From positions 3,375-67,374 of the forward strand of contig CAWANO010000001.1 in the NCBI GenBank assembly GCA_963783425.1: 64,000 bases of DNA, in the 5' to 3' direction. Positions 22,009-43,276 of this stretch are shown here, in pieces. The notes under the pieces were generated by a model, which saw nothing but the letters and a program-made list of their open reading frames with translations, was not told where the DNA came from and did no database searches. How positions within the stretch are numbered: the first letter of the stretch is position 1; each line of letters opens with the position of its first letter. This DNA is from an uncultured delta proteobacterium. Its GTDB lineage: Bacteria > Desulfobacterota > Desulfobacteria > Desulfobacterales > QNYZ01. Position numbers and translations under genes: made by a program.

Positions 22009-22045
22009 CACGCGATCTACCGGCAAAATCAAGGAGATTTAATCT

Positions 22046-24034: not shown

Positions 24035-24046
24035 ATGGGAGGAACT

Positions 24047-25709: not shown

Positions 25710-25710
25710 A

Positions 25711-26427: not shown

Positions 26428-26720
26428 TCAGTCAATTTCGTGGGCAGGGCAACACCGGCCTTCCGGGGTCGTTAGAGCGCGGCTGGCGCCCACAAACCAA
26501 TTCACCGGCCGCGCTCATCCGGTTGGGGGGGTAGCATTACGTTGATCGCAATGCGGGGCATGTGGTTGTCCCCCGTAATCTACTTTTTGACCACATGCAT
26601 ATTCTCAAAGCTGGCCAGCCGGTCCAGTTCAATTGCGATAACCGGCCAGGAGTTAGTCCATTTTCATCTCCTGTTACAGAGGGGGGTCGTGAAAAGCCCC
26701 CCTCAAACCCTAAACCAGCG

Positions 26721-26972
26721 ATGATGCGTAATATGAAGGTCATTGAGTTTCCACTGGAACGACAAAATACAAATCAACACCGCTTGGTCAACCTCAATAA
26801 AATCACCCAAATGTATGTAGGCAACGGTGTAGATGAGGCGGAGGGGTGGGTCCGGTGGCACAGAAATATTCTCGGCGAGTTCCCCGACCTTGCCCCACAT
26901 GATGCGGTGATATTGAAGCGACTGGAGAATATGTATAAGCGAACCCAGGAGATTTTGAGCCATGACGATTAA
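26721..26972 (+). CDS. Hypothetical small protein (83 aa)
   Basis: ORF with start MMRNMKV; no recognisable domain. Confidence 0.35.
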   Translation: MMRNMKVIEFPLERQNTNQHRLVNLNKITQMYVGNGVDEAEGWVRWHRNILGEFPDLAPHDAVILKRLENMYKRTQEILSHDD

Positions 26973-27221
26973 TCCGGCCCCAGAGGACACGCATACGGCA
27001 AGCCGTGGTGTCAATTTGAGGTCATGGGTGCTCCTTGCACAGGAGATTTCAGCCAGCACACATGACTGTCCACGGTAATTTTTTACATGCCTCAACTATT
27101 TGATTTATTATGAGATATAGACGAGGTGAAAAACTCCATGAAAAAAATGTTAATAACTTTAGGCCTCTTTTCTTATAATAGATATAGCAGACGACAATTT
27201 TTGGACAAAATAAATCACCTT

Positions 27222-27293
27222 AGGGGAGGGGCAACCGTTGCGCACGGTGCGGCAAACCTGCTTCTATCCCAGCCGAGCCGCTGCCCCTCCCCT
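27222..27293 (+). promoter_or_regulatory. 12-bp perfect inverted repeat (long hairpin) in the leader of the Rep-like gene
   Basis: AGGGGAGGGGCA (27222-27233) and TGCCCCTCCCCT (27282-27293) enclose 48 nt that contain a nested ACCGT-tgcgc-ACGGT hairpin. The repeat ends 34 nt before the ATG at 27328. Confidence 0.5.
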
Positions 27294-27327
27294 TTTCTAC
27301 TTTTAATGGCTGGAAGAAGGATAGAAA

Positions 27328-28602: not shown

Positions 28603-28639
28603 AAAATAGTGCTTGGAGGATATGTGATATTTTGCCGTA

Positions 28640-28728
28640 GAAAAGTTACGTTTTTCGTAAGTCTTTAATTTTGAAAAGTTACGTTTTTCGTAAGTCTTCT
28701 CGGAAAAGTTACGTTTTTCGTAAGTCTT
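28640..28728 (+). repeat. Three 26-bp direct repeats (iterons) GAAAAGTTACGTTTTTCGTAAGTCTT
   Basis: Exact copies at 28640-28665, 28673-28698 and 28703-28728 (33- and 30-bp spacing). Each contains TTACG-N5-CGTAA. AT-rich DNA follows. Confidence 0.85.
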
Positions 28729-28989
28729 TAATTTGTCCAAAAAGGCAGTTATCTAATATTATAACAATATTTTAGCTAATTTGGATAATGTTTATGCGAC
28801 CAAAACATGTATGTAACTGCTTAATAAATAGTACCCTATACAGCGGGTACTGCGCCCTCTGGGCTCGTGAGCAGGCATGGTCCAAGTATGCTTACGCATC
28901 CTTTCCACAAGATGCCTTGCTACACTACGCCCATGGAGCGTTATGAAAAAATGGATATAGTTGTCTACCAAAAACTGGAGAAGAAGATA

Positions 28990-29058
28990 AACATGCTTCC
29001 AGATAAAAAAGTAGAACATCTTCCACTTAAAAAGGATAGAACATGCTTCCAGATAAAA
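28990..29058 (+). repeat. Second set of direct repeats AACATGCTTCCAGATAAAA (two exact copies plus a degenerate middle copy)
   Basis: Exact copies at 28990-29008 and 29040-29058. GAACATCTTCCAC at 29014-29026 gives a period of about 25 bp, upstream of the 29161 gene. Confidence 0.7.
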
Positions 29059-29160
29059 TCAGGTATCCGTCCAGTTATAGATTTAATGCATACTAAATAA
29101 GTATAGATAAAATGCATAGAGAAGATAGAAATTATCAATGCCATAAAAGAGAGGTGAACC

Positions 29161-29892
29161 ATGACAATGGTATGTAAGGTCTGCAGTCATCCAGAAAGGC
29201 TGCTTATTGACAGGGCTTTAGCGGGTGGAGGCAATGTTTCAAAGATAGCTAAGAAGTACAGCGTATCTCACGGCAGCCTTTACCATCACCGCAAAAATCA
29301 ACTGACCCGACAGATGATTAAGCATACTGAACTGCGCGAGATTGTAAGTGGAGAACACCTGATAGGAGTGGTGACAGATCTGCTTTCGGCCAGTCAGGAT
29401 ATCCTCAACAAAACGAAAGATAATCCCAAAAAATATGGTGTTGCGTTAAAGGCGATTGCCGAGTCCAGACAAACTGTTTCTCTTTTATGGGAAACGGCAT
29501 TTAGGTTGCAGGAATATCGTGCCGAAGATCACATCGAGGGCGAATATGAGAAGCAGTGGAAAAAGTTTTTGGACGATGTGGCACAACTGCCGGTCGAAGA
29601 TATCGAGACGATACGATCGCTTCATGAGAAGGCTATAATGTTGCGGAGGCAGAAATCGGATCAAGGCAGGCGCACAGATCTTGAGCGTAAAAAGTCTGGC
29701 CCCAAAAAGGGTTGGAATCATCCACAGTCGTATAGAACCACGATTGAATTGAAGCAGCGAAAGCGCCGCAGACGAAAGCCCGCCCCTGTTAAAGTCAATG
29801 AATTTGATGAAATGCGTGATCATTTAGGCATGGATAACAATCCAAAGCCAAAGCGCAAGCGGACAGGCTGGGCAGGGGCAACGCTGTTTTAA
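29161..29892 (+). CDS. Zn-ribbon/HTH DNA-binding protein with a highly basic C-terminus
   Basis: CKVCSHPER...IDRAL..GGNVSKIAKKYSVSHGSLYHH pattern (CxxC + HTH). KR-rich tail. Resembles phage/plasmid small DNA-binding proteins. Confidence 0.5.
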   Translation: MTMVCKVCSHPERLLIDRALAGGGNVSKIAKKYSVSHGSLYHHRKNQLTRQMIKHTELREIVSGEHLIGVVTDLLSASQDILNKTKDNPKKYGVALKAIAESRQTVSLLWETAFRLQEYRAEDHIEGEYEKQWKKFLDDVAQLPVEDIETIRSLHEKAIMLRRQKSDQGRRTDLERKKSGPKKGWNHPQSYRTTIELKQRKRRRRKPAPVKVNEFDEMRDHLGMDNNPKPKRKRTGWAGATLF

Positions 29893-29960
29893 AGCTTGAC
29901 ATATTATGCAAATGTTCGTAAAAATATAATAAATATTAAGCTTTATTTATAGGATCAATA

Positions 29961-30644
29961 ATGAAAACAATTGCTTATCTTAGGGTCAGCACAGACAAAC
30001 AGGATCTGGACAACCAGAAGCTTGAAATTGAAAAATATGCACGGTCCAGAAATCTTGTCATTGATCAATGGATTCAGGTCACAATATCCAGCCGCAAAAA
30101 TGGTCAAGATCGTCGCATTGATGAACTATTATCAAAGCTGAAGCGTGGTGACTGTTTGATTGTCAGCGAGATCAGCCGTCTTGCACGTTCTATCAGAGAA
30201 ATTCATCAGATCATGCACCGGCTTTCCAAGAAAAAGATTGAATGCCACTTTATCAAACAAAACCTCATCACCCATGGCGATAACGATATGGCGACCAAGA
30301 TTTATTTAAACGCCTTTGCGCTTGCCAGTGAGATCGAACGTGACCTTATCAGTCAACGTACTAAGAACGGTTTAGCGCTTGCTAAGAAGCGTGGAAAGAA
30401 GCTTGGCAACCCCAACCTGCCAAAGATCAATAAACGCACTAAAGAAGCCGCTGACAAGTATGCTGACACACTGCGAGCGATACTGACCGGCTTTGTCGAC
30501 CAGGGTCTGACCTATCAGCAGATGGCCGATGCCCTTAGAGATGCAGGCGTTAAGACGCGCAGGGGCAGTACCCAATGGTCCACGGGCAGTGTGCAGGGAT
30601 TGTTGAAGCGGCTGGACCTTAGAACCAAAAGGGCGAGGAGATAA
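29961..30644 (+). CDS. Serine recombinase (resolvase/invertase catalytic domain + C-terminal DNA-binding region)
   Basis: AYLRVSTDKQ catalytic-serine motif, SEISRLARS, ERDLISQRTK. C-terminal ...LTYQQMADALRDAGVKTRRGSTQWSTGSVQGLL. Confidence 0.9.
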   Translation: MKTIAYLRVSTDKQDLDNQKLEIEKYARSRNLVIDQWIQVTISSRKNGQDRRIDELLSKLKRGDCLIVSEISRLARSIREIHQIMHRLSKKKIECHFIKQNLITHGDNDMATKIYLNAFALASEIERDLISQRTKNGLALAKKRGKKLGNPNLPKINKRTKEAADKYADTLRAILTGFVDQGLTYQQMADALRDAGVKTRRGSTQWSTGSVQGLLKRLDLRTKRARR

Positions 30645-30662
30645 GAATTGAGGAGACGGTAA

Positions 30663-32045
30663 ATGAGAGGGTTCTTCTCCGATTTAGTTGGAGAAGAACC
30701 AAACGAAGATAAGAAGTCAGGTCGGTTTGTCCGCACAAAGAAGAAGAAACCTATCAATGAACACATCATTTTTAAGGCCCCTGCCCTGATTACAAAGACC
30801 ACTTGGGATCAAATTCAGGCTCAGACTGAGGCCAACAAGGTCAAGGGCACGCATACGACGAAGGAGACGGAGACGTTATGGCTCAGGGACATGCTGACTT
30901 GTGGTGAATGTGGCGGAAAGCTTGTGCCTAAATATGGTGCTTATCGCAAGGATGGCACACGCCCAAAGTATTATTGTTGTCATTGGCGGGGGGCATCGCA
31001 AAAGGTTTTAAGAAGTGTTGGCCGGTTAGAAAGATGCGCCCTGCCATTGATCAGGGCAAACGAGATTGAGACGCGTGTTTGGCAAGCTTTGCTTGATCCA
31101 ATTCGTCTCCTGATGAACCCTGAAAGGGTCAAGCCATTGATTGACAAAAAAGACGTCACAACAAAGCTGGCCCAATATGATGATAGCATAAAGTCGTTTC
31201 AGGCCGATTTGAGGGGCGTCAAATTGGGCGTCAAGCGGATTATGGCAATGTTGCAGAAACCAGATGCGCCTGAGCTGGCCGCTGACCTATTGCTAAAGCA
31301 GCTAAACGATCTGGAAACCAAAAGGGTCACAATTGAGGCGCGGATTGATGATGTGAAACAGCAAAAAGCTGATTTATATGATGCTGTTGAAAACAACAAG
31401 GCCTACCAACAATTTATTCAAGGCCACAAAAAACAGTTGAAGAGCTTAATCCATGAAATAATCAGACTGAAACCTGAGCATAAAAAGCGTCTAGTCGAGG
31501 GATCGTTTAACGACAAAATCAAGGTGGTGATCAATCAGGATTATATGAGGGTTGCTGATCCAAAGAACCCGAAGAGCTTTGCTGAATATGAAACGGTTGC
31601 AGAGGGCAAGTGGCTTTTAGAGTGGCCCGAAGCATCGTTTAGCGGCCATCTTAATATTGCCGTTTTAAAGCGGTTTTTGGACGAGGGCGTGATAGGTAAA
31701 CCAATGAAAATAAAGGGCGGATCAGCTATTAAATCAGATCAAAACACTACGCTCTTACAAGTCTCACATGGCCATCTTCTGGTCCAATCTCTCCAGACTC
31801 AACGGTCCGCTTATCATCTTGTATATTTCGATGTTCTTCCTGTCGGGACCCGTGTCGAGAGGCACCTATTTCACCTTTTACTCGAGCGGCTGTTTTTTCG
31901 TTGTGGCGATCTTGTCCATCGTTCCCATTCCATTCATGGGAAAGTTCTGGTTTTATTTCTTCAACCTGCTGTTCAATTGACCGTGATCTATTTTTTCGTT
32001 GCCAGCGTGGTTTACTGGATTCGCGCCGGGGCGCAATTGGGTTAA
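30663..32045 (+). pseudogene. C-terminal portion of a large serine recombinase (end of recombinase domain, zinc ribbon, coiled coil), no catalytic domain
   Basis: ...HIIFKAPALITKTTWDQIQ..., LTCGECGGKL...YYCC zinc ribbon, long coiled coil. Same reading frame as 29961..30644, separated by two TAA codons. The tail after about 31770 looks non-proteinaceous. Confidence 0.6.
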
Positions 32046-32135: not shown

Positions 32136-32771
32136 ATGCAAACTGAACCGAATCTGCTGGAAATTTTCTCCGACTACATCTGACCCTGGTGCTACTTCAT
32201 TGCCGGGCGCATTGACAAGATTGAAGCGAGATTTGAGAATTTGACGATCCAGTGGGTGGCGTTTCCCCTGCACCCGGAAACGCCCCGAGCGGGCCGTTCC
32301 CTGGCGGACCTTTTCGCCGGCCAGCCCGTCAATATCGACGATATGCTGGCGCAATTACGGGGTGTGGCTCTGGCCGAAGGGTTGCCCTTTGGTGACCGGA
32401 CCATGACCTACAACAGCCGTTTGGCCCAGGAGTTGGGGAAATGGGCCGAAACCCTGGGGCGGGGCCATGCCTACCACTGGGCGGCCTTTAAAGCCTATTT
32501 TGCCGACGGTAAAAATATCGCCCGAAACGACGTGCTGCTGGAGATCGCCGAAACCGTTGGGTTGGACCCTCGACAGGCCCAATCGGTCATCGAAGCGAGA
32601 ACCCAGCGCGAGGCCGTGGACCGAGATTGGCAACGCTCCATGGAGCTGGGTGTTCGCGCTGTACCCACGTTACGAATGGGGGGTGAGATGCTGGTAGGTG
32701 CGCAGCCCTATGCGGCCATCGAGCAGTTGGTTGAAAGACATCTCAAGGGTGGCTACGACGCTGCCTTTTAA
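32136..32771 (+). CDS. DsbA/FrnE-like thiol-disulfide oxidoreductase, selenoprotein (UPWC redox motif; UGA at 32181-32183)
   Basis: ATG at 32136 gives MQTEPNLLEIFSDYI-U-PWCYFIAGRI..., in frame with ORF 32241..32771. The UGA sits where the first Cys of the family's SDxxCPWC motif would be. Confidence 0.75.
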
Positions 32772-32844
32772 GGCGCAGTGATTGCCCTGAAGCCTTTCAT
32801 AAAAACGCGACCCACCTGATATACTTTCAATAAGGCCTCTTTGC

Positions 32845-33306
32845 TTGTCCACTCGCGCCATATCGCTTCTAAAGAAAAGAAAAATCGCCTTCGAGGTGGT
32901 GCGCTACGATCATCTTGAAAAAGGGGCCGTGTTTGCCGCCCAGGCAATCGGTTTCGAGCTGGATAGAACCATCAAGACCCTGGTGGTAACGACGGAATCA
33001 GGGTCGTTTGCCTTGGCGCTGGTACCGGGCAGCGGCCAGTTGTCCCTCAAGCGCATGGCGCGGGCCATGGGGGTAAAGCAGGTTGCCATGGTAGACACGC
33101 CCGAGGCCGAACGCCAAAGCGGATACAAAGTCGGCGGCATCAGCCCCTTTGCCACCCTGCGGCGGATGCCGGTGGTGATGGATACCGAATTGCTTTGTTA
33201 TGACCGGGTGGCCATCAATGCCGGGCAGCGTGGGGTGATGTTGGTTATGGCGCCGGGGGATATTCAACAGGCGCTGGGAGCTGCAAAAGCATCGCTCACG
33301 GCTTGA
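32845..33306 (+). CDS. ybaK: Cys-tRNA(Pro)/aminoacyl-tRNA deacylase YbaK/EbsC family (TTG start)
   Basis: ...SGYKVGGISPF...INAGQRG... motifs; intact 153-aa frame. Confidence 0.8.
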   Translation: MSTRAISLLKKRKIAFEVVRYDHLEKGAVFAAQAIGFELDRTIKTLVVTTESGSFALALVPGSGQLSLKRMARAMGVKQVAMVDTPEAERQSGYKVGGISPFATLRRMPVVMDTELLCYDRVAINAGQRGVMLVMAPGDIQQALGAAKASLTA

Positions 33307-33386
33307 CTCTTATCTTGGGTGTTTCCATTCATCGATTGCGACGTCTGGTCCTGGAAATCCAAAGGTGAGCGTTACTTTCACTTCTA

Positions 33387-33647
33387 TCAGGCATTGTCCA
33401 CGGAAGAGGACTTATCCACACCGCGTAGCAGTCCGCTTTCGCCGGCGATCCAGACTAGCAGGCGCCCGATGGGGCTGAGTTGTTCCCGCAATTTCATCCC
33501 CTGAGTTACCAGACCGGGTTCGTCGGTGATAATGCCATCTACGCCGAGGATCATCATAACCGACATCTGAGCTTGCACCACATCCACCACTTTCGATTCC
33601 AAGTTGCGGTCGTGCCCGTAAGAGTTGAGTTCGACAACCACCCCCAA
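33387..33647 (-). pseudogene. Glycerophosphodiester phosphodiesterase 3' remnant (internally deleted)
   Basis: Matches the C-terminal part of the 41373..42002 ORF (...GVDGIITDEPGLVTQ.MKLRE.LSPIGRLLVWIAGESGLLRG) but lacks the catalytic N-terminal region. Confidence 0.8.
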
Positions 33648-33667
33648 CTTACCCCTTACCAGTCCTA

Positions 33668-34363
33668 TTGCCTCCCAGCTGGATTCTCAAGGTGCAGATC
33701 ATGCGATTTAAAGAGGCTGAAACCTACCGCTTCAACCCCTTTGACCTCACCAAGGTGTGGCCCCACGGCGACTACCCGCTGCAGGAAGTGGGCCGCTTGA
33801 CCCTGGATCGCAACCCCACCGATTTCCACACCGAGATCGAGCAGGCGGCCTTCGAGCCCAAAAATCTCGTCCCCGGAATCGGCCCCAGCCCGGACAATAT
33901 GCTGCTGGCCCGCCTGGTTTCCTACGCCGACGCCCACCGTGCCCGTCTGGGGGTCAACTACAAGCAGATCCCCGTCAATCGACCGAAATGCCCCGTCCAC
34001 AGCTACAGCAAGGGCGGTGCCATGCGGATTGAAAATGTGCGCGATCCGGTTTACGCCCCCAATTTAAAAGGCGGCCCACGGGCTGATGCCGAACGCTACC
34101 CCGAAGTGGCGGTCTGGGGCGCCAGCGGTGAATTTATTCGCGCCGCCTACACCCTGAGCGAAAATGACGATGACCGGGGCCAACCCGGCACCCTGGTGCG
34201 CAAGGTGATGGACGATGCCCAGCGCGATCGGCTAGTCTCAAACGTGGTGGGGCATCTTAAAAAAGGCGTATCCGATCCGGTACTGGAACGCGCGTTCGAG
34301 TACTGGCGCAATATCGACGAACAGATCGGAGATCGTATCGGCAAGGGCGTCAAAGGAAAGTAA
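33668..34363 (+). pseudogene. Monofunctional catalase, C-terminal ~225 aa only
   Basis: ...SWILKVQIM...FNPFDLTKVWPHGDYPL...RNP..F..EIEQAAF.P...VPGI..SPD. The haem-binding N-terminal half is absent. Confidence 0.8.
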
Positions 34364-34402
34364 TCCAGTAGCCAAGCTGGATTTATGATACCCGCTTTAA
34401 AG

Positions 34403-35824
34403 TTACTTTTTTAAGGGGCGATAGAAGGAGGTGGCGTTGCCGTGCAGGGTTTGGGCGGCTTCCATCAGCGTTTCAGACAGGGTGGGGTGGGGATGGATTG
34501 AGAGTCCCAGATCGGTTGCGTTGGCCCCCATTTCGATCGCCAGGACACCCTCGGCGATCAATTCTCCGGCGCTCGGACCGACGATCCCCACGCCCAAAAT
34601 TCGTTCGCTCCGCTCGTCCACCAGCAGTTTGGTCAACCCGTCGCTGCGGCCCAAGGTCGCCGCCCGGCCCGAGGCGCCCCAGGGGAAACGGGTGGCGATG
34701 TAGTCGACGCCTCTTTTTTTGGCTTCCGTTTCGGTCAGCCCCGCCCAGGCGATTTCAGGGTCGGTAAAGACCACTGCCGGGATCGCGGCCGGTTCGAAGC
34801 CTACCTTACGGCCGGTAATGACCTCAGCCGCCACCCGACCTTCGTGGATGGCTTTGTGGGCCAGCATCGGCTCTCCAACCACATCACCCACGGCAAAAAT
34901 CGACTGGGCGCTGGTCTGCTGCCGGTGATCCACCTGTATGAATCCTCTTTCATCAACGTCGATCTGCGCCTTTTCAAGACCCAGGTCGGCGGTGTTGGGG
35001 GTGCGGCCCACCGCCACCAGGGCTTGATCGAAAATGCGCGTCTGCTCTTTTTCCTGAGGGTCACTGAGCACGACGCGCAGGCCGTTTTTTTGTACTTTCA
35101 TGGTTTTGACCGTGGTCTCGAGCAGCACGCCCTCAAATAGACCGTCGATCCGCTTTTTCAACACCCGCACCAGATCGCGGTCGACTCCCGGCAGCAAGCC
35201 GCCGGTCATCTCTACCAGGGTTACACGGCTGCCGAGAGCGGCGTAAATGGTACCCATCTCCAAGCCGATGTAACCGCCGCCCACCACCAGCAGCTTGGGG
35301 GGTACGCTTCGGACCTCGAGTGCATCGGAGGCCTTCATCAACCGCTCGCTTTCGAGCATCGCGCCCGGCAGGCTGGCAGCTTTGGAGCCGGTTGCGATGA
35401 TGGCTTTCTCAAAAGAGACCTTTTGCGTATCGCCTCCCTTGGGGTTGACTCGTAGCGAATGCTGGTCGGAAAAAGCGGCGGTGCCGCGAATGTATGCCAC
35501 ACGCCGCTGTTTGGCCAGTTGCCCCAGCCCTCCGGTGAGCTGGGCCACCACGTCGTTTTTCCACCGGCCTAATTTGGCGCTGTCGATTTGCGGCGATTGA
35601 AAGGTGACGCCCTGCTCACCGGCCTGCTGGGAGGCAAGGATCAGTCCGGCGATGTGCAGCAGTGCTTTAGAGGGGATGCAGCCGCGGTACAAACAGACTC
35701 CGCCGGGGTTGGGCTCGGGATCGATCAAGGTCACTTTAAGTCCCAGGTCGGCAGCCATGAATGCCGCTGCGTAGCCTCCCGGTCCGGCGCCAATTACGGC
35801 CAATTGGGTATCAAGCTCTTTCAT
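34403..35824 (-). CDS. lpdA: Dihydrolipoyl dehydrogenase (E3)
   Basis: GAGPGGY FAD motif; redox-active GGVCLYRGCIPSK; C-terminal HPHPTLSE. Confidence 0.95.
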   Translation of the reverse strand: MKELDTQLAVIGAGPGGYAAAFMAADLGLKVTLIDPEPNPGGVCLYRGCIPSKALLHIAGLILASQQAGEQGVTFQSPQIDSAKLGRWKNDVVAQLTGGLGQLAKQRRVAYIRGTAAFSDQHSLRVNPKGGDTQKVSFEKAIIATGSKAASLPGAMLESERLMKASDALEVRSVPPKLLVVGGGYIGLEMGTIYAALGSRVTLVEMTGGLLPGVDRDLVRVLKKRIDGLFEGVLLETTVKTMKVQKNGLRVVLSDPQEKEQTRIFDQALVAVGRTPNTADLGLEKAQIDVDERGFIQVDHRQQTSAQSIFAVGDVVGEPMLAHKAIHEGRVAAEVITGRKVGFEPAAIPAVVFTDPEIAWAGLTETEAKKRGVDYIATRFPWGASGRAATLGRSDGLTKLLVDERSERILGVGIVGPSAGELIAEGVLAIEMGANATDLGLSIHPHPTLSETLMEAAQTLHGNATSFYRPLKK

Positions 35825-35930
35825 TTCAACTCCTGGCGTCTTTCAGCGGCGTTCGGTTGTCACTTTGCTCGCGCGCTGTTTTGTTTTCATTGCCACTGCG
35901 CTTGTACAACGCCTGGCGCATCGCTCTCTA

Positions 35931-37337
35931 TTAGTCGAGATGCAGGGTCAAGGGGTGTTCCAAACACTCCCGCAACCAGCCAGCAAAACGCGCCGCGTCG
36001 GCGCCGTCGACGATGCGGTGGTCATAAGTAAGGGCGATGGGCAGCATCGCGCGGGGCTGGAATTCTCCGTTGATATAGCGGGGTTTTGTCACCGTCCGGC
36101 TGACGCCTAATATGGCTGTCTGGGGCCATAAAACCACCGGCGTGAATCCCTTGCCGCCGATCCCCCCCTGGTTGGAGATGGTGAAAGTACCTCCCTCCAT
36201 CTCGTCGGGCTTGATTTTTTTGTTGCGGGTGCGCTGGGCCAGGTCAACAATCTCAATGGCCAGTTCGAGGATGGATTTGCGATCGACATCACGCACCACC
36301 GGCACGAGCAGTCCCCGCTGGGTGTCCACGGCCATGCCGATGTGAACGTACTTCTTCAGGATCATCCGGTTGTCAGCCAGATCGATGCTGGCGTTAAAGT
36401 GCGGAAATCTCAGAAGCGCCAGGGCGCAGATCTTCATCAGTACGGCAGTCAGGGTCAGTTTGCCCCCCTGGTCGGCCACTTTGTCGGAATGGCGGTTGAT
36501 GAACGCCTCAACCGCCGTGATATCCGCCTCCTCGAATTGGGTCACCGGCACCACGGTTTGATGTGAGAAGCTCACGCTCTCGGCCGTCAGGCGGCGCACC
36601 GCGCTTAGCTCCTGCACTTCCACCTCTCCCCAGCGGCTGAAATCGGGCATGGCCGACCCATTGCCGGACGGTGCGGCCAGTGCCGCTTCGCCGCCCTGGT
36701 TACGGTCGTTTTGGTGCTGTTTGACATAAGTCTTGACATCGTCCGCGCTGATCCGTCGATCCGGTCCTGCCGTCGTGACCTCATGGATGTCAACGCCCAG
36801 CTCCCGGGCTAGCCGACGTACCGATGGCGAGGCTGGCACCGGGGGCGGTGTCTTCTTTTTTTCTTCGGTATGGGACCGCTCCCGGCCGGACTCTTCGGCA
36901 CCATATTGTTCGGGCGTTTTGTCGCCGTGCTGGCGGGTATCCTGCTTGCTTTCTTTTGCTGTGTCGGCCTCACTTTTCCGCGCTTCGCGGGTCTCCTCGC
37001 TCCTGGACGGCTCGCTCTCCGCGGCAAGCTCTTCTGCTTTTTCGGTCTCTTCTTGTTGCGGTTGCTCCTGCGGCGCTTCTTTTTCCGGCTGTTCCTCCGC
37101 ATCGGTCTCGAGTTTGGCGACAGCGTCGCCTACATTCAGCTCGTCGCCCGCCTTGACCAAAACTTCCGTGATTTTGCCGGCGAAGGGTGAGGGGATCTCC
37201 ACCACCGCTTTTTCGGTTTCAAACTCGATAACAGGGTCATCCACGGCCACCATTTGGCCGGGCTCGACCAGTACCTCAACCACGCTGCCGGAGGTGACGT
37301 TTTCACTGATTTCGGGAATAGTAATCTCTTTTATCAT
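35931..37337 (-). CDS. aceF: Dihydrolipoamide acetyltransferase (E2), one lipoyl domain and a long acidic linker
   Basis: Lipoyl-lysine context FETEKAVVEIPS; E3-binding PSVRRLARELGVD; catalytic YDHRIVDGA. Confidence 0.9.
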   Translation of the reverse strand: MIKEITIPEISENVTSGSVVEVLVEPGQMVAVDDPVIEFETEKAVVEIPSPFAGKITEVLVKAGDELNVGDAVAKLETDAEEQPEKEAPQEQPQQEETEKAEELAAESEPSRSEETREARKSEADTAKESKQDTRQHGDKTPEQYGAEESGRERSHTEEKKKTPPPVPASPSVRRLARELGVDIHEVTTAGPDRRISADDVKTYVKQHQNDRNQGGEAALAAPSGNGSAMPDFSRWGEVEVQELSAVRRLTAESVSFSHQTVVPVTQFEEADITAVEAFINRHSDKVADQGGKLTLTAVLMKICALALLRFPHFNASIDLADNRMILKKYVHIGMAVDTQRGLLVPVVRDVDRKSILELAIEIVDLAQRTRNKKIKPDEMEGGTFTISNQGGIGGKGFTPVVLWPQTAILGVSRTVTKPRYINGEFQPRAMLPIALTYDHRIVDGADAARFAGWLRECLEHPLTLHLD

Positions 37338-37351
37338 GGCTACTCCTCACC

Positions 37352-40030
37352 TTACTCAAACAGAGGGTTTGGCTTGTGCGGATCGATTTCAAGTTTTTGG
37401 GCCGCTGATTCAACCACTGAAAGTTTCACCCGCTTCTCACGCGCCAGGGCCACCAGGGCCGCATAGGCGATGTGCCGCGCATCCACTTCAAAAAAATCTC
37501 GCAGGGCCGTGCGGGTCTCACTGCGGCCGTATCCGTCCGTGCCGAGCAGCACCGTCCTGCCCGGTAGCCATTTGGCGATGATCGCCGGAAGCGCTTTGAG
37601 ATAGTCGCTGACGGCGACAAAGACCCCCTTTTCCTTTTCCAGTACTTGCTGCAGAAAAGGTGTGCGCGGATCCTTCTGGGGGTTGCGCAGGTTACGACGT
37701 TCGGTCTCTATCGCCTCCCAATAGAGGTTTTTATAGCTGGTGACGCTCCAGACATCGGCGGCTGTTTCGAACTGCTCTTCGAGCAGTTTTTGAGCAGCCA
37801 GGGCCTCGTTGACAATAGCGCCGCTGGCGAAAAGGTGAGCCTTGATCTTGGCACGGGAGTTGGCTGAGGCCCGGTATTTATAGAGCCCTTTTAAAATGCC
37901 CTCCTCGGCCCCTTCTGGCATGGGCGGCATGCGGTAGAATTCGTTCATTACGGTTAAGTAGTAAATTACATCCTCTTCTTCGACGAGCATGCGCCGCAAG
38001 CCTTCACGCACGATTACGGCCACTTCGTAGGCGAAGGCCGGATCGTAGCAGCGAACCGCAGGGTTGGCCAAGGCCAAAACATGGCTGTGGCCGTCCTGGT
38101 GTTGCAGGCCTTCCCCAGCCAAAGTTGTGCGGCCGGCGGTGCCGCCCAACAGAAAACCGCGTGTCCGTGAATCTCCCGCGGCCCAGATGAAGTCACCGAT
38201 GCGCTGAAAGCCGAACATCGAATAGAAGAAGAAAAAGGGGATCATCTGGATGCCGTAAGTCGAATATGCCGTACCGGCGGCGATGAAGGAAGAGATCGAA
38301 CCGGCCTCTGTAATGCCCTCTTCAAGTATTTGTCCGTCGGTGGCCTCTTTGTAGTAGAGCAGGCTGTCTTTGTCCACCGGATCGTACTTTTGTCCCTGAT
38401 GCGAGTAAATACCGAACTTGCGAAAGAGTGCCTCCATCCCAAAAGTACGCGCTTCGTCCGGTATGATGGGCACGATCTGCTTGCCCAACGCTTTATCCTT
38501 GAGCAGTTTGCCCAGTAGGTGGACCATGGCCATTGTGGTAGCCACTTCGCGATCTCCGGAGCCCTTGGTCAGTTCGGAAAAGATCTCATCCGACGGCATA
38601 TCAATCTTGGCTGCGACGGTTCGTCGTTCAGGAACGGAACCGCCCAGCTCAGTTCGGCGTTGATTGAGATAGGCGATCTCTTCACTTTCAGCCACCGGGC
38701 GGTAGAAGGGGGCCTCCTTGATATCCGCGTCGGAAATCGGAATGCCGAAGCGGCTGCGAAAATGCCGAAGTTCGCGCTCATTAAGCTTTTTCTGTTGATG
38801 CGTGACATTGCGCCCTTCACCGGCCTCACCCAGACCATATCCCTTGATGGTCTTGGCCAGAATCACGGTAGGAGAGCCCTTGTGGTTTACAGCGGCGTGG
38901 TATGCGGCGTAGACCTTTTCGGGATCATGTCCGCCTCGTCGCAGCTTCCACAGCTGTTCGTCGGTATAGTGGCGAACCATCTGTTCGAGTTCCGGGTGCT
39001 TACCAAAAAAATCGCGGCGGATGACATCTCCGCCGGAAGCCGAATAGAGCTGATACTGGCCGTCGGGCACCTCTTCCATGCGCTGCACCAGCAATCCTTT
39101 ATCATCTCGCGCCAGCAGCTGATCCCAGTCGCTGCCCCAGATCACCTTGATCACGTTCCAGCCGGCACCCCTAAAGGCCGCTTCCAGTTCCTGGATGATC
39201 TTTCCGTTGCCGCGCACGGGGCCGTCCAGGCGCTGCAGGTTACAGTTGACCACGAAGATCAGGTTGTCGAGGTTTTCGCGTGCCGCCAGGGTGATCGCGC
39301 CCAAAGATTCGGGTTCGTCCAACTCGCCGTCACCGAGGAAGGCCCATACCTTTCGGTCGTCCCCTTCCTTGAGTTTGCGATTCTCCAGGTAGCGACTGAA
39401 GCGAGCCTGGTAGATCGACATAATCGGCGACAGCCCCATAGAGACGGTGGGGAATTGCCAAAACTCGGGCATCAGATGAGGGTGAGGGTAGGAGGGCAGA
39501 CCACCGCCAGGCTGGAGCTCCTGCCGAAAGTTCTCCAACTGCTTGGCGCTGATGCGACCTTCCACAAAAGCGCGGGCATAAACACCGGGAGCGGCGTGTC
39601 CCTGGAAATAGACCAAATCGCCCGGTTGGTCGTCTGTGGCGGCCCGGAAAAAATGGTTAAAACCGACCTCGTAAAGGGTCGCGCAGCTAGCGTAGGTGGA
39701 GATATGACCGCCAATACCTTCATTTCGGCGGTTAGCGCGCAAAACCATGGCCATAGCGTTCCAGCGCACGATGCTCTTGATGCGACGCTCGATTTCGCGG
39801 CTGCCCGGAAAGACGGCCTGCCGTTCTGCGGGGATCGTATTGACATAGGGCGTGGTGAACGAGCACTCGCCACCGACACCATATTCAGCGGCCTGAAGCT
39901 GCAGCCGACGCAACAGTTCGCGCACCCGTTCGGGGCCTTGGCTTTGGTGGACATAATCCAGGGAGTCGCGCCATTCCCGATTCTCTTGTTCGATCTGCCG
40001 GTTGCCGCTTTCTCTTTTTTCAGTTGCCAT
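37352..40030 (-). CDS. aceE: Pyruvate dehydrogenase E1 component, homodimeric type (892 aa)
   Basis: Length and motifs are typical of AceE (GGHISTYAS..., GDGELDEPES...). Confidence 0.9.
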   Translation of the reverse strand: MATEKRESGNRQIEQENREWRDSLDYVHQSQGPERVRELLRRLQLQAAEYGVGGECSFTTPYVNTIPAERQAVFPGSREIERRIKSIVRWNAMAMVLRANRRNEGIGGHISTYASCATLYEVGFNHFFRAATDDQPGDLVYFQGHAAPGVYARAFVEGRISAKQLENFRQELQPGGGLPSYPHPHLMPEFWQFPTVSMGLSPIMSIYQARFSRYLENRKLKEGDDRKVWAFLGDGELDEPESLGAITLAARENLDNLIFVVNCNLQRLDGPVRGNGKIIQELEAAFRGAGWNVIKVIWGSDWDQLLARDDKGLLVQRMEEVPDGQYQLYSASGGDVIRRDFFGKHPELEQMVRHYTDEQLWKLRRGGHDPEKVYAAYHAAVNHKGSPTVILAKTIKGYGLGEAGEGRNVTHQQKKLNERELRHFRSRFGIPISDADIKEAPFYRPVAESEEIAYLNQRRTELGGSVPERRTVAAKIDMPSDEIFSELTKGSGDREVATTMAMVHLLGKLLKDKALGKQIVPIIPDEARTFGMEALFRKFGIYSHQGQKYDPVDKDSLLYYKEATDGQILEEGITEAGSISSFIAAGTAYSTYGIQMIPFFFFYSMFGFQRIGDFIWAAGDSRTRGFLLGGTAGRTTLAGEGLQHQDGHSHVLALANPAVRCYDPAFAYEVAVIVREGLRRMLVEEEDVIYYLTVMNEFYRMPPMPEGAEEGILKGLYKYRASANSRAKIKAHLFASGAIVNEALAAQKLLEEQFETAADVWSVTSYKNLYWEAIETERRNLRNPQKDPRTPFLQQVLEKEKGVFVAVSDYLKALPAIIAKWLPGRTVLLGTDGYGRSETRTALRDFFEVDARHIAYAALVALAREKRVKLSVVESAAQKLEIDPHKPNPLFE

Positions 40031-40102
40031 AGAGAGAGGTCTTTCATGAAGGGTCAGTGCGTTATGAGGATACCGGCAGGGCTCGCCGTCTTACTGAAAG
40101 CG

Positions 40103-40435
40103 TCAGATCCGACCGCCGCGGCCGTCGTCGCAAGGTTGATCGGAATCGTCAAACCGTTGGTGTTCTGCCCATTCCGGCGCCTTGGTGCAAACATCGGGTT
40201 CAGCGGGCGAGGCTGGGTTTTGCTCGGACAGGCCATCGAGTACCGCCGCATCGGTGAGAACAACGCCGGCCCCTTGCATCTGCTCGATGGCGGTAGAAAT
40301 ATTCTTGGCACTCACCGGTCGTGTGGCCTCGGTGATCAGAACCACCTTGAAGCCTGCCGCCACGGCATCCATAGCCGATTCGAGCACGCAAACATCCAGT
40401 GCCAGCCCGCCTCGAAGTGGCTTTATCTCACTCAT
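40103..40435 (-). pseudogene. Isochorismatase/nicotinamidase-family C-terminal fragment
   Basis: GLALDVCVLESAMDAVAAGFKVVLITEATRPV matches the last third of the family. The N-terminal two-thirds are missing. Confidence 0.6.
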
Positions 40436-40805
40436 TACGCATTCCTTTCGAGCAGCAGGCTCACCGCCGTTCGGGGTGAGGGTGTTTCGGCGAGTCGTGT
40501 CTGCCTAAATTGTGCCACAGCGCATCTGTCACTTATCACTATAGCAGTCTTGGCGACTTCTTTAAACCTCAATGGTTGTCGATGCCGTTTCAGGGTCGCT
40601 CATTCTCAACGTTTAAGAAGCCTGGGCATTGTTGCGCGTGGCCGAATTCCAACCCAATCATGGTGGCGGAGAGAATATCGATCAGCTGTCGGTGGGGTTA
40701 TTTCCAGCACCGAAGATCCGGCAGTTTTGGTAATCTCCCTCAACTACTGTAGGTTGGTCGTGAAGGTTCGCTTTCCAATGGTTAATTGCCGGGTTAATAT
40801 AAACC

Positions 40806-41878
40806 TTCATTAAGGCCCCTTTCCATGTCCACCCGCGCTATTTCATTCCCGAAGAAGAAAAAGATCGCCTTCGAAGTGGTGCGCTACGACCACTTTGAAA
40901 AAGGGGGCGTGTTTGCCGCCCAGGCGATCGGTTTCGAGCTGGAGAGAACCATCAAGACCCTGGTGGTAACGGCGGAATCAGGGGAGTATGCCCTGGCGCT
41001 GGTACCGGGCAGCGGCCAGTTGGCCCCAAGCATATGGTACGAGCCATGGGCGCCAATCAGATCACCATGGCGGATGCATCCTCAGCCGAACGCCAAAGCG
41101 GATACAAAGTCGGCGGCATCAGCCCTTTTGCCACCCTGCGGCGGATGCCGGTGGTGATGGATACCGAATTGCTTTGTTATGACCGGGTGGCCATCAATGC
41201 CGGGCAGCGTGGGGTGATGTTGGTTATGGCGCCGGGGGATATTCAACAGGCGCTGGGAGCTGCAAAAGCATCGCTCACGGCTTGAATCCTATCTTGGGTG
41301 TTTCCATTTATCATTTATCGATTGCGACGTCTGGTTCTGGAAATCCAAAGGTGAGCGTTACTTTCACTTCTATCAGGCATCGTCTACGGAAGAGGACTTA
41401 TCCACACCGCGTAGCAGTCCGCTTTCGCCGGCGATCCAGACTAGCAGGCGACCGATGGGGCTGAGTAGTTCCCGCAATTTCATCACCTGAGTTACCAGAC
41501 CGGGTTCGTCGCTAATAATGCCATCTACGCCGCGGCTCATCATAACCGACATCTGAATGGGGTCATTGATGGTCCAGACGTAGATTTTCATTCCCTGTTT
41601 GTGAGCGGAATGGATCATGGCCCGGGAGGCCGCCACCGCATTGAGTGCCAGAAAGTCAAGATCGAGGTGGGTCAGGTCCCCGATGCTGGCGGTGTTCAGC
41701 AAGCCGTGCGGCCAATCCGGTCTGAGCGCGGCAGATTTTTGCAGGCCGGGCAGTTTGAGAGACATGATTTTTACGTTGGCCGCCATTGCCGTCTCTTCCA
41801 CCACATCCACCACACGCGATTCCAGGTTGCGGTCATGCCCGTAATATTTAAGTTCGATGACCACCCCCAACTTGCCCT
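40806..41878. repeat. Segmental duplicate B (frameshifted ybaK + 3' part of glycerophosphodiesterase gene)
   Basis: Colinear with 32826-33655; long stretches are nearly identical (e.g. GAACGCCAAAGCGGATACAAAGTCGGCGGCATCAGCCC...). Confidence 0.85.
40825..41285 (+). pseudogene. ybaK paralog with a 1-nt frameshift (ORFs 40825..41157 and 41034..41285)
   Basis: The N-terminal 60 aa and C-terminal 70 aa match the 32845 copy. The frame changes near 41025-41035 (GGCCCCAAGC versus TCCCTCAAGC in copy A). Confidence 0.75.
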
Positions 41879-43276
41879 TGGCCAAGTTCGAGCGCCTCTC
41901 GAAGTGTGGGCACCCGCTGGTCGTAAAAGTCTTTCCCAAACCAGCTGCCGATATCGATGTTGCGCAATTTGTCGCCGGTTGCCGCCCAGACTTTCGTGCC
42001 ATTTCCGGCCACTTTCATAAAGTCGCTGTCGTGGGCAACCACCACGATGTCGTCGGCACTTTCCTGCACATCCAGCTCGATCCAGTCAGCTTTGTCTTCA
42101 ATGGCGCGGTGAAAGGCCGCCATCGTGTTCTCTGGTGCAGCCCCCGAGGCGCCGCGATGGGCGATTATTTCCACAGGCACCTCACTGCCCATGCTCCTTG
42201 ACGCCAGGTATCCACCGATCATCATCAGTAACAGGGCCGTGCCCCCCAGCCAGAGAAGCGATTTTCCCGGAATCGAATGGGAATCCTTTTCCCCCAATGA
42301 TCCACGTGGGACAAGCTCTGGATCGAATCGGCCCGGCCCGGCGATCAAGCGAAAAAGCCGGACTGTGTACAGGGCGAACATTACGTGTAATAATGTTCAA
42401 CCCGAGATACGCGCCCCCGGATAAAACCAGGGTAGCGCCGAAGCCAGCCGCCACCCATGTCAGATTTGTGCTGATGTCGGGGATCAGGACGGCACCTACC
42501 AGGTTAACCATGTAAGTGATCAAAAAGCATAGCAGTAATATTCCGGCCAACCACGAGGCGAGCAGGGAGGCGATTTTCCATCGGTAGGGTGCGGTGTCGG
42601 CTTTGCTCTGCTGCAACGCCTGCCGGCCGTGTTTTTCCTCGAACAGAACCAAGGACAGGGACAGGATCCAGCCGGCGAACAACCTCAGCATAACGATTGC
42701 CATTGTGGCAAGGATAACAGATGCCCAAGCCACTGCCCACCACCACTCCGGCGGTTTATCCGCCAGGTAGAAATTGATGTCATGCTCTGTTAGAAAAATC
42801 AGGTAAACACAACCCACACCCACCAGGAAAGGAATTACCGTCAGCAGTAATCGAAGGAGAACATGCCCGGCCAGCGTCACCATCTTGTAGGCATGTTTGC
42901 CGACATACAGCACGGCATCCAGCCAAGTCACCCGGCGTTGCTCAGCGGCACCGAACCCGATGACCATCAGAAAACCCTGTTCGATGAAGAGCATCCCTAA
43001 GGACACCGTACCGATGACCATCAGCGCTGCCATACCGGTGGGATGCAACAAAAACATACGAATATCCGCATCGGCCAGCACACCGTCTTGCGTCCGGTCA
43101 AGGAATACCTTGAGCAGAACACCCACCAGGGGGGTCAGCACCAATATGCCAATTGCCAGTGACAATAGGTGCGTGATCAGCAGTTGCGGCCAGGCTTGCC
43201 GGAAATCACGGAATGCTCCAAGCAATTGACGCCATTCCGGACTGGGACGGTTCATATTCGATTCATACCTTATCAC
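41373..43276 (-). pseudogene. Membrane-anchored glycerophosphodiester phosphodiesterase, split into three frames
   Basis: Membrane domain (42182..43276), GDPD catalytic part with IAHRGASGAAPENT (41848..42381), and C-terminal part (41373..42002). Frame changes fall near 42381-42400 and 41881-41890. Confidence 0.75.

Follow-up and report, generated by a model that had tools for sequence, protein, structure and literature searches.

We examined a window of 64,000 nucleotides from a contig of an uncultured delta proteobacterium, in which two colinear direct repeats lie with a period of 7980 nt. Copy A (32819-33674, 856 nt) and copy B (40799-41898, 1100 nt) were placed by a repeat search, a MAFFT alignment and a blastn search of the window against itself, and the repeat search and self-blastn found only these two copies in the 64 kb. 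An initial annotation of the sequence had recognized colinear, partly near-identical direct repeats, and this is confirmed, but the repeat extends about 20 nt further to the right than it had claimed. The copies are 89.7% identical over 854 aligned columns (88 positions differ) and are further distinguished by a 237-nt deletion, a 7-nt indel and three frameshifts. They enclose a 3' catalase fragment, an intact lpd-aceF-aceE (PDH) operon and a C-terminal fragment of an isochorismatase gene. A DsbA-family gene on the forward strand (32241-32771; PF01323, E=1e-22) is the conserved left neighbor of ybaK in the clade, and the DsbA-ybaK adjacency is also present in contigs L020 and L021 and in the contig of P0247. 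A low-GC island with a serine recombinase lies 1 kb leftward; it was inserted separately, between NifS and DsbA.

Each copy carries a ybaK gene on the forward strand. The gene in copy A (32845-33306) is intact, encodes 153 aa with a PF04073 domain and is chimeric according to three-way and seven-way alignments and a site table: its 5' two-thirds are of the type found in L016, L019 and L021 (A-type) while its 3' third is identical to copy B. The gene in copy B (40825-41285) is a B-type pseudogene, 97.4% identical to the intact B-type gene of L020, which stands there in the order DsbA-ybaK-GDPD. Its -1 frameshift, at about 41023-41027, reflects a run of 4 C versus 5 C in L020 and recurs in an independent short-read contig, L017. 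Over the 5' 290 nt, window copy A groups with L016, L019 and L021 (95 to 100% identity) and window copy B with L020 and L017 (96.6 to 97.4%); over the last 159 nt, the two window copies are identical and L016 is only 77% identical to both. A patch of about 60 nt had been singled out in the initial annotation as more diverged than its flanks, and the segment 33047-33106 is indeed only 64% identical between the copies, versus 86.5% upstream and 98 to 100% downstream. Identity here is 100% between copy A and each of L016, L019 and L021 and 96.6% between copy B and L020, such that the segment separates the two ybaK classes. The contigs of related strains show that the two window genes belong to two old classes of allele at one DsbA-ybaK locus, and the patch is this dimorphism. 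The pure A-type C-terminus is 78 to 80% identical to outgroup orthologues P0244, P0245 and P0247, one of which has the gene order NifS-DsbA-ybaK, as in the window; the A-type, carried by these outgroups and by L016, appears to be the vertically inherited gene. The L016 gene is probably orthologous to that of copy A, with about 95% identity overall and about 98% outside a B-like patch on the same strand (32916-32976; alignment columns 226-286 of the site table), where 6 sites of copy A carry the state of copy B and L020 and not that of L016 and L019.

These allele classes bear directly on how the repeats arose. A single landing of a block cut in katA, with duplication of its target, had been proposed, but the left halves of the two ybaK genes belong to different classes, 13 to 35% diverged, each of which is found beside DsbA in other strains. 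The repeats are best read not as a target-site duplication but as alternative forms of a module that consists of ybaK, alone or together with an adjacent convergent GDPD gene, and that in related Desulfobacterales-like strains stands directly downstream of a DsbA gene. The two versions have since exchanged sequence. A perfectly identical core of 159 nt on the forward strand (33148-33306, corresponding to 41127-41285) is a tract of gene conversion or crossing-over; when the differences were permuted 20,000 times, the longest perfect run averaged 46 nt and never reached 159 nt (P<5e-5). In the seven-way alignment, the variants 33158 T and 33184 A are common to the two window copies only, and the switch from A-type to B-type falls between 33147 and 33158. 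The presence of two genome-private variants within the core points to later gene conversion between the copies.

The phosphodiesterase (GDPD) gene, on the reverse strand, has decayed in both copies. In copy A only a 3' stub survives (33387-33674), which in tblastn with the intact 627-aa homologue P0001 matches residues 454-487 and 568-627 in a single frame; a 237-nt in-frame deletion at 33570/33571 has removed the equivalent of 41557-41794 in copy B, and the 5' part is also absent. Copy B carries a full-length gene (41373-43255; PF10110 and PF03009, membrane and GDPD domains) that aligns to P0001 in three different frames. The frame changes near 42382-42386 and again near 41884-41885, the latter change being caused by an extra A that is missing from L019 and from copy A. 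The GDPD gene of L019 is intact and 98.9% identical to that of copy B. Hence, the initial description of copy A as an intact ybaK with a deleted stub, and of copy B as a frameshifted ybaK with a full-length, twice-frameshifted phosphodiesterase gene, was accurate. The stub is 93.8% identical to copy B in its proximal part and 81% identical in its distal 100 nt, deviates from the ELKYYGHD motif conserved in the family and has about 11 nonsynonymous to 4 synonymous copy-A-specific changes. At 3 sites of the site table the stub matches L020 while copy B matches L019, and the stub is not a fresh copy of present-day copy B. Copy-A-specific changes reach about 15% in the distal 100 nt, versus about 3% neutral divergence between L016 and the window. 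Decay in place after a recent event does not account for this excess, which implies that the event was older, that the donor was diverged or that some other factor was involved.

The stub ends directly at the catalase remnant (33675-34363, forward strand), a pseudogene that retains only PF00199 profile positions 248-383 plus PF06628 (Catalase-rel). Compared with L016, its substitutions are evenly distributed among the codon positions (5/7/8), and an independent ENA contig (P0362) has a 220-aa truncated catalase open reading frame that shares its start. The illegitimate joint between the GDPD and catalase genes was mapped by comparing copy A with L019, in which GDPD continues, and with L016, in which catalase continues; the only letters shared are TC (33673-33674), a 2-nt microhomology present in both parental sequences. 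Decay and gene conversion, as had been anticipated, are borne out by the 159-nt core with its private variants, the 6-site patch, the frameshifts and the neutral pattern of substitution in the stub and catalase.

The PDH operon, on the reverse strand, presents a different pattern. The genes lpd (E3, 34403-35824), aceF (E2, 35931-37337) and aceE (E1, 37352-40030) are intact by Pfam, and 73 of 99 substitutions relative to L016 fall at third codon positions (17/26, 19/29 and 37/44, respectively). These data indicate that the operon is functional and under purifying selection. To its right, the isochorismatase/nicotinamidase (pncA) fragment (40103-40435, reverse strand) covers only positions 120-174 of the 175 in PF00857; the open reading frames upstream of it gave no profile match, and the same 110-aa reading frame is found on at least 8 other contigs. 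Both outer genes of the block are thus truncated, as had been noted, but the pncA fragment stops short of the repeat. A spacer of 363 nt (40436-40798), 99.7% identical in L017, lies between; it has no Pfam match and is not DsbA-derived (tblastn and blastn negative). No recombinase, transposase or mobilization gene was found between 33675 and 40798.

The idea that this block is foreign was not upheld. Its GC content is host-like and equal to that of the flanks, it is 98 to 99% identical in sister strains, and its substitutions fall mostly at third codon positions. Relatives of aceE were found at 100, 99, 89, 83 and 81% identity, the nearest within the same Desulfobacterales-like group. The operon occupies different neighborhoods in the relatives at 89% and 81% identity, and this supports the other half of the proposal, that it has been relocated.

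Contigs from related strains show alternative arrangements of the locus. L016 is 98.0% identical to window positions 40231-33673, spanning the PDH operon. Beyond 33673 it has 2.5 kb that are absent from the window, followed by ybaK without a GDPD stub. The rest of the catalase (profile positions 1-43 and 75-356) lies in this extra segment together with a CCC transporter fragment and a 340-aa EEP gene, giving the order ybaK-EEP-transporter fragment-longer catalase-PDH. As A-type ybaK and the block are connected in L016 by a longer catalase that is not cut and by two further genes, the GDPD/catalase joint would reflect a later replacement of about 2.65 kb and not the edge of an inserted cassette. 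The pncA-spacer-ybaK-B junction is present in L017, where the left junction of copy B is 99 to 100% identical. Both are short-read assemblies, L016 stopping at the ybaK start codon and L017 inside ybaK-B, and among the contigs compared none carried the L016 left edge together with the ybaK-B/GDPD right edge. The initial annotation had also raised the prospect of relatives with a single ybaK-GDPD pair lacking PDH, and the uninterrupted arrangement was found in L019 and L020. L019 has the upstream flank of copy A, and its left part is 99% identical to L016. Its structure is exactly as expected for a loop-out product or for a pre-insertion state, although L019 and the other comparison contigs are short metagenomic assemblies in which a repeat-crossing contig could be chimeric. 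The suggestion that the PDH genes could be lost by recombination between the repeats is accordingly plausible, L019 having the structure of the product.

Directly observed are the anatomy of the locus, its two classes of ybaK allele, the different gene order in L016, the tract of conversion and the pattern of selection. The explanation that we favor, with somewhat better than even confidence, is that recombination between strain variants put two old versions of the ybaK module around the PDH operon and that a replacement resembling homology-facilitated illegitimate recombination (HFIR), gene conversion and decay came later. Both versions would have reached one chromosome in the lineage of the window, flanking a patchwork block that at that stage may have comprised the EEP gene, the cation-chloride-cotransporter fragment, a dead catalase, lpd-aceF-aceE, the pncA fragment and the 363 nt; L016 and L017 would represent this earlier state. 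A single window-specific event would then have combined a homologous crossover within ybaK, at one end and between 33147 and 33158, with an illegitimate joint at the other end, between about GDPD codon 454 and mid-catalase via the TC at 33673-33674. Such an event could be HFIR, defined as homologous at one end and illegitimate at the other (PMC3240628), or one-ended ectopic repair. About 2.65 kb, running from the 3' third of ybaK-A through the EEP gene and the transporter fragment to the end of the catalase 5' half, would have been replaced by a B-type ybaK 3' third and the last 174 or so GDPD codons. Afterwards, short-tract conversion between the copies may have produced the 159-nt core and the 6-site patch, the stub would have lost 237 nt and decayed, and the redundant ybaK-B and GDPD genes would have gained frameshifts, while the PDH operon remained under purifying selection. 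What we infer is the order in which these events took place, their enzymology, and whether the donor DNA came from copy B of this genome or from another strain.

It is also possible, if rather unlikely in our view, that the repeats arose by insertion of a circle, which puts the proposal of the initial annotation into explicit mechanistic terms. A single-copy DsbA-ybaK-GDPD ancestor similar to L019 would have undergone one Campbell-type crossover inside ybaK/GDPD with a circle or concatemer of about 8.2 kb bearing ybaK-B, the GDPD 3' end joined to the catalase 3' end, PDH, the pncA fragment and the spacer; such a reciprocal crossover automatically leaves a copy of the homologous 1.1 kb at each end of the insert. 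The uninterrupted ybaK-GDPD with the copy A flank in L019 and the DsbA-ybaK-GDPD order of L020 fit this. Among phase-informative sites, those at which the copies differ and each matches L019 or L020, 43 of 43 to the left of the core read A as L019 and B as L020, and all 3 to the right read A as L020 and B as L019. One event would thus yield all four haplotypes, with the core as its heteroduplex tract, and a lone reciprocal crossover that inserted a circle accounts for this reversal of phase at least as economically as the favored explanation does. However, the right-hand phase consists of 3 sites only, and L019 could equally have arisen from a two-copy genome by deletion between copies A and B, or be a chimeric contig. 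The circle must already have carried the GDPD/catalase joint, the block shows no mobilization function, and the A-type ybaK linked to an uncut catalase in L016 is not predicted.

An in situ origin, which we hold to be improbable, would start from an L016-type genome with a tandem duplication of the segment from the catalase 3' end through ybaK-B to the GDPD 3' end, by illegitimate sister-strand exchange at the TC microhomology. A RecA-dependent deletion between ybaK-A and the first ybaK-B would then remove one PDH copy together with the EEP gene and the 5' half of the catalase. Rearrangements of both kinds are standard in bacteria, and together these two steps reproduce exactly the gene order, the chimeric ybaK-A and the GDPD/catalase joint. 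The stub should however have equaled copy B at its origin, whereas it differs by 6% proximally and 19% distally against about 3% neutral divergence. Moreover, the 3 sites noted above are polymorphisms shared with other strains and not new mutations, so that a further allelic replacement would be needed.

An assembly artifact, with one locus assembled twice or with chimeric junctions, could be suspected in a metagenome-type assembly whose relatives' short-read contigs (L016 and L017) break at the repeat, but is made highly improbable by the many differences between the copies, by the copy B junction in L017 and by the truncated catalase in another ENA contig. Least credible of all is a site-specific element that targets ybaK and carries its 3' end, with the repeats as attL and attR: accessory-looking genes are flanked by direct repeats of the 3' part of a gene, near a serine-recombinase island, but the block has the GC of its flanks and no genes for movement, the repeats are about 1 kb and diverged instead of short and identical, and the island is a separate insertion.

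The locus is a tidy case of bacterial genome rearrangement and of ordinary plasticity, and not a new kind of element. In Campbell-type insertion-duplication (merodiploids), direct repeats of a homologous segment flank the insert, the copies resemble reciprocal chimeras of two haplotypes and the process can be reversed by recombination between them, all as here; however, the window has no plasmid or circle and no replication or mobilization genes, and the L016 intermediate is not predicted. Gene conversion between duplicated bacterial genes is exemplified by tufA and tufB of Salmonella. The short tract of perfect identity with genome-private variants in otherwise diverged repeats is similar, but one partner in the window is a pseudogene, and the window repeats are direct and 8 kb apart, so that crossing-over between them would remove the PDH operon. 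Microhomology-mediated tandem duplication (PMC11111574) shares the novel joint at a 2-nt microhomology; in the window, the 8-kb unit is duplicated over no more than 1.1 kb, in nonidentical copies, which also counts against the plain tandem duplication offered earlier as an alternative. At the type VI secretion effector/immunity loci of Vibrio cholerae (PMC5361080), sequential displacement leaves gene remnants in arrays. The genes and the organism differ, but repeated one-sided homologous imports there leave truncated or orphan genes of earlier residents, as in the window. HFIR is described for naturally competent bacteria (PMC3240628). In the window the process is read from the sequence, and the second copy in the same genome, acting in ectopic repair, could have served as donor in place of imported DNA, but the likeness extends to the homologous exchange, here in ybaK, the illegitimate joint with minimal microhomology, here TC, the replacement of recipient by donor DNA and the truncated genes that remain at the joint.

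The architecture proposed in the initial annotation (colinear repeats, an intact ybaK beside a phosphodiesterase stub in the first copy, a frameshifted second copy, a diverged patch within ybaK and outer genes truncated at their outer edges) stands in every item on alignment, tblastn and Pfam analysis. A NifS-like aminotransferase gene (20077-21273, minus strand) and a DsbA-family gene (32241-32771) are followed by an intact ybaK (ybaK-A, 32845-33306), a stub of the phosphodiesterase gene GDPD (33387-33674, minus strand), a catalase 3' fragment (33675-34363), the pyruvate dehydrogenase (PDH) genes lpd, aceF and aceE (34403-40030, minus strand, all intact), an isochorismatase C-terminal fragment (pncA', 40103-40435), 363 nt without a gene assignment (U365, 40436-40798), a frameshifted ybaK (ybaK-B, 40825-41285) and a full-length but frameshifted GDPD gene with a membrane domain (GDPD-B, 41373-43255). 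GC content is approximately 0.56-0.61 across the region. Searches of the window found zero tRNA genes and zero matches to Rfam families at the gathering threshold. The NifS-like gene and DsbA, only ~640 nt apart in a relative, are separated here by an inserted low-GC island (0.39-0.50, ~21300-31750) with an IS110-family transposase (22743-23777), a large serine recombinase split in two ORFs (29961-30644 and 30663-32045), an HTH_3 protein and several ORFs without a Pfam match. The right end of this island lies to the left of 31752, since a contig of a related strain, L020, matches the window from there rightwards; no convincing att repeat was found for it, the best being 11 nt.

The direct repeat occurs only twice in the window, as copy A (32819-33674, 856 nt) and copy B (40799-41898, 1100 nt), which are 89.7% identical and have a period of 7980 nt. 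Identity is unevenly distributed: 86.5% over the upstream 26 nt and the 5' part of ybaK, 64% in a 60-nt patch (33047-33106), 97.6% over the following 41 nt, 100% over a 159-nt core (33148-33306), 93.8% over the intergenic spacer and proximal stub and, beyond an in-frame 237-nt deletion found in copy A only, 81% over the last ~100 nt. The stub corresponds in a single frame to residues 454-487 and 568-627 of P0001, an intact 627-aa GDPD homologue (tblastn). A further direct repeat of 438 nt, 92.9% identical, lies near the window start (1-438 and 2047-2484).

The copy A ybaK, a member of the YbaK/EbsC aminoacyl-tRNA deacylase family, has a full-length tRNA_edit domain (PF04073, E=6e-25, residues 31-142) and is the sole intact ybaK of the region; the copy B match stops at a frameshift shared with L017, a short-read contig from an independent assembly. 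Both domains of a membrane-anchored glycerophosphodiester phosphodiesterase, GPDPase_memb (PF10110) and GDPD (PF03009), are found in GDPD-B, yet they are spread across three frames, as confirmed by tblastn with P0001, rather than lying in a single polypeptide; the rebuilt protein is 70% identical to intact 627-aa homologues at 100% coverage. The second frameshift is an extra A that neither copy A nor L019, a related contig, has. GDPD-B is a pseudogene, and GDPD function is lost at this locus. Pfam profile coordinates show that the catalase and isochorismatase pieces are true fragments. The PDH genes, intact and adjacent to one another, encode a homodimeric E1 (PDH_E1_M), an E2 with lipoyl, E3-binding and catalytic domains and an E3, as expected of an AceE-type complex. 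Annotation of the region should list a single functional ybaK, the intact PDH operon and, as pseudogenes or remnants, five further items (GDPD stub, catalase fragment, pncA fragment, ybaK-B and GDPD-B). Two identities for U365 were rejected: a DsbA remnant, with which the repeat would be longer (no match by tblastn or blastn), and the lost 5' part of pncA (U365 ORFs without Pfam match). Inside U365, the minus strand at 40538-40566 resembles a promoter (TTTAAA-17 nt-TATAGT and an upstream TG) directed towards pncA' and aceE; a promoter and terminator scan of 39900-41500 gave a count of sites not above shuffled expectation.

The initial annotation interpreted the region as a foreign or relocated block that had landed with duplication of its target, followed by decay and gene conversion. 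Only part of this interpretation is supported: exchange between the copies stands, while a foreign origin does not, since the GC content is host-like and relatives are graded. The block matches its flanks in GC, and its AceE has relatives at 100, 99, 89, 83 and 81% identity in the same kind of organisms; the names of the AceE homologues place the organism among Desulfobacterales-like MAGs. Between the window and the related contig L016, 73 of the 99 substitutions in lpd, aceF and aceE fall at third codon positions, a pattern that indicates purifying selection, whereas the catalase fragment (2.9% divergence) has 5, 7 and 8 substitutions by codon position. We interpret the PDH operon as a functional, resident gene set that was relocated and not imported from afar. 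Its neighbourhood varies among relatives. In the sample of P0247, a YbaK homologue, an 89%-identical operon sits between DUF2254 and SIMPL/GlnS/Memo, and an 81%-identical relative has the operon in yet another context. Substitutions with respect to L016 are far denser in the 39 nt that separate the catalase fragment from lpd (34364-34402; 6 substitutions, 15%) than in the flanks of this spacer (2-3%).

Contigs of close relatives came from a protein collection (samples: L016, JGI 3300040801; L017, ERZ1688200; L019, ERZ1688085; L020, SRR30301844), scans of genome and metagenome collections being uninformative. Exact-protein gene-context look-ups with the window ybaK, the window AceE and the protein P0121 gave no matches; a genome-contig scan with the rebuilt GDPD found relatives only at ≤41% identity and from other phyla, which were left out of the later comparisons; and metagenome scans gave 314 pattern matches with the ybaK protein, 0 of them confirmed, and 0 matches with a 41-nt degenerate DNA pattern. 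Read leftwards from 40231, L016 (9.5 kb) matches the window at 98.0% identity as far as 33673, beyond which it carries 2.5 kb absent from the window and then ybaK at the contig end. This additional DNA includes the remainder of the catalase gene, with profile positions 75-356 in one frame and 1-43 in another. The L016 catalase is, therefore, also a pseudogene, and it has an additional frameshift near the C-terminus, where the window fragment is in frame. In L016, the interval between ybaK and catalase (6560-9055) codes for a complete membrane-anchored Exo_endo_phos protein of 340 aa and for the C-terminal 58 aa of a prokaryotic cation-chloride cotransporter. The entire surroundings of the PDH operon are a patchwork of gene remnants. 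L017 (4.8 kb, 99% identical) runs through aceF-aceE-pncA'-U365 and ends 240 nt into ybaK-B. An uninterrupted ybaK-GDPD arrangement, anticipated in the initial annotation for related genomes, was recovered: L019 (1.6 kb) has the copy A upstream flank, ybaK and an intact GDPD of at least 331 aa, and L020 (1.8 kb) has the order DsbA-ybaK-GDPD 3'. The P0247 contig (ybaK 80% identical) has the order NifS-640 nt-DsbA-ybaK.

In L021, DsbA-ybaK is followed by an unrelated element of ~170 nt (L021 877-982), which lies 45 nt downstream of ybaK in place of GDPD. This element is also present in the window (63573-63746) and in L018 (7709-7877, on the upstream side of a GDPD with only 65% identity, at a distance of ~480 nt), and is 94-95% identical across the three genomes in three different contexts. 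It folds as a single long imperfect hairpin, which is much more stable on the minus strand (-93.9 kcal/mol, z=-9.7) than on the plus strand (-64.2 kcal/mol, z=-4.8), an asymmetry expected from G.U pairs, and its ends resemble imperfect inverted repeats (CT[A/T]AGTGC...). Its one Rfam match, to a plant miRNA, is spurious (23.6 bits, where the gathering score is 200), and viral contigs gave 0 matches. Candidate identities are a palindromic, MITE-like mobile element and an ncRNA marking breakpoints of the locus.

A seven-way alignment and its site table separate two classes of ybaK allele. Over the first ~330 nt, copy A clusters with L016, L019 and L021 (95-100%, the patch at 100%), and copy B with L020 and L017 (96.6-97.4%). 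At the protein level, an intact B-type is represented by P0243 (from L020) and the pure A-type by L016 and P0246, and both P0241 (from L019) and P0242 (from L021) combine A and B sequence with other switch points; the pure A-type C-terminus resembles outgroup orthologues at 78-80% identity. As both classes are found directly downstream of DsbA, the diverged patch, which is real, represents an old dimorphism of one locus and not local decay. The DsbA neighbours (P0363-P0375; window 32241-32771) are also mosaic among strains, P0374 having a window-like body and an L020-like C-terminus, so that recombination between strain alleles reaches beyond ybaK. From 33148 to the stop codon copies A and B are the same, with L016 only 77% identical to them, and both window copies have 33158 T and 33184 A, which are absent from L016, L019, L020 and L021. 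A run as long as the core was reached in 0/20,000 shuffles (permutation mean 46, maximum 134; P<5e-5), and permutation of the right-hand part alone gave P=1e-4. An overlong identical tract in diverged flanks and variants restricted to one genome's two copies are both features of gene conversion. On these sequence patterns, the core, its two variants and a 6-site B-like patch in copy A (32916-32976) are marks of exchange between the copies in this genome's lineage.

At the right end of copy A, GDPD-derived sequence extends to 33672-33674 (compared with L019) and catalase-derived sequence starts at 33673-33675 (compared with L016), with the parental sequences sharing only TC (33673-33674) at the joint (...CCTATTGCCTCCCAGCTGG...). 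A 12-nt "filler" at this joint was rejected, as alignment with L019 identifies these as diverged GDPD bases next to a clean joint with TC microhomology. The window joint is the derived state because L016 retains a contiguous, longer catalase; ~2.65 kb of L016 sequence is replaced in the window by ~0.5 kb (~0.77 kb prior to the 237-nt deletion). To the left of copy B, likeness to the L020 DsbA-ybaK spacer fades ~30-60 nt upstream of ybaK-B, where U365 begins. Homology-facilitated illegitimate recombination (HFIR) is defined by one homologous and one illegitimate side (PMC3240628); the illegitimate joint is expected to have 0-10 nt of microhomology and to come with loss of recipient DNA. Here, A-type switches to B-type between 33147 and 33158, in a region of high similarity, and the TC joint accompanies the absence of ~2.65 kb. 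Most likely, the window structure arose by HFIR or by one-ended ectopic repair on a ybaK-GDPD template: a homologous switch would have occurred inside ybaK on one side and an illegitimate TC joint on the other, with loss of DNA that L016 keeps. Today's copy B is unlikely to have been the template: the stub is 6% off copy B proximally, and three positions distinguish both L019 from L020 and copy A from copy B, at all of which the stub matches L020 and copy B matches L019. These three variants, common with L020 and not with copy B, are suggestive, and only suggestive, of a donor in the form of imported linear DNA.

The distal 100 nt of the stub has ~15% copy-A-specific changes, against ~3.5% proximally and a neutral divergence of ~3% between L016 and the window. 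These changes break a family-wide motif (ELKYYGHD to ELNSYGHD) at a near-neutral nonsynonymous:synonymous ratio of ~11:4. Origin from another functional GDPD lineage was rejected on the basis of this motif departure, this ratio and the lack of special likeness to L018 or to 120 homologues. Three explanations are possible: the event may have taken place earlier than the PDH block, at 98% identity, would imply, the block having since been homogenised between strains; the donor allele may already have been decayed and diverged; or repeated conversion from copy B may have refreshed the ybaK side of the 237-nt deletion and not beyond.

The most economical alternative to HFIR or one-ended repair is a single reciprocal crossover that inserted (or, backwards, excised) a circle of ~8 kb, with L019 as the empty site or deletion product. 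Such a Campbell-type insertion would make the repeat copies reciprocal chimeras of a recipient and a donor haplotype; scored against L019 and L020, the phase is 43:0 to the left and 0:3 to the right, although L019 may itself be recombinant or a chimeric contig. Each of the four possible left/right combinations is represented among the window copies, L019 and L020. Recombination has thus certainly occurred at the core, but it is not certain which of these sequences are recombinant. The circle ranks second for two reasons: L016 is not predicted by it, and the likeness of L019 (99% L016-like on the left, 98.9% copy-B-like on the right) would also result from a chimeric contig or from deletion between A and B. 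A purely in situ route, in which a deletion followed a tandem duplication, accounts for the gene order but would have started from identical copies; a whole unit repeated head to tail with one new join was not found, the duplicated part being ybaK and the GDPD 3' end only, with PDH, catalase fragment and pncA fragment single-copy in the window. A transposon target-site duplication finds no match in these long, diverged repeats, as ~2-14 bp identical repeats are expected and neither inverted repeats in 30-46 kb nor a transposase in 33675-40798 was found. A site-specific island (attL/attR with short identical cores, a recombinase and usually deviant composition) is unlikely, there being no recombinase in the block and a GC of 0.56-0.61 as in the flanks, and an assembly artefact is likewise unlikely, even though short-read assemblies of relatives (L016, L017, L019 and many 1-2 kb contigs) break exactly here.

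A perfect core of 159 nt is long enough for RecA-dependent loop-out, given minimal homology requirements, and the PDH operon, placed between such recombinogenic repeats, may be lost or amplified in the population. It is, however, improbable in our estimation that the 8-kb unit (one repeat and the PDH operon) is a reversible cassette, looping out as a circle at the ybaK/GDPD repeats and able to re-insert, so that PDH presence or absence would be a switchable population polymorphism. Were this so, a polymorphism for an aerobic-type pyruvate dehydrogenase would be standing in a sulfate-reducer-like population, with L019 as an empty and the window as an occupied site. Under the preferred route, HFIR or one-ended repair, the locus is a worked example of how repeats around an operon can mimic a cassette with target duplication and yet be two strain alleles of one locus, joined by one-sided homologous recombination and later partly homogenised by gene conversion. 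The event is of a known and ordinary kind and opens no new mechanism.
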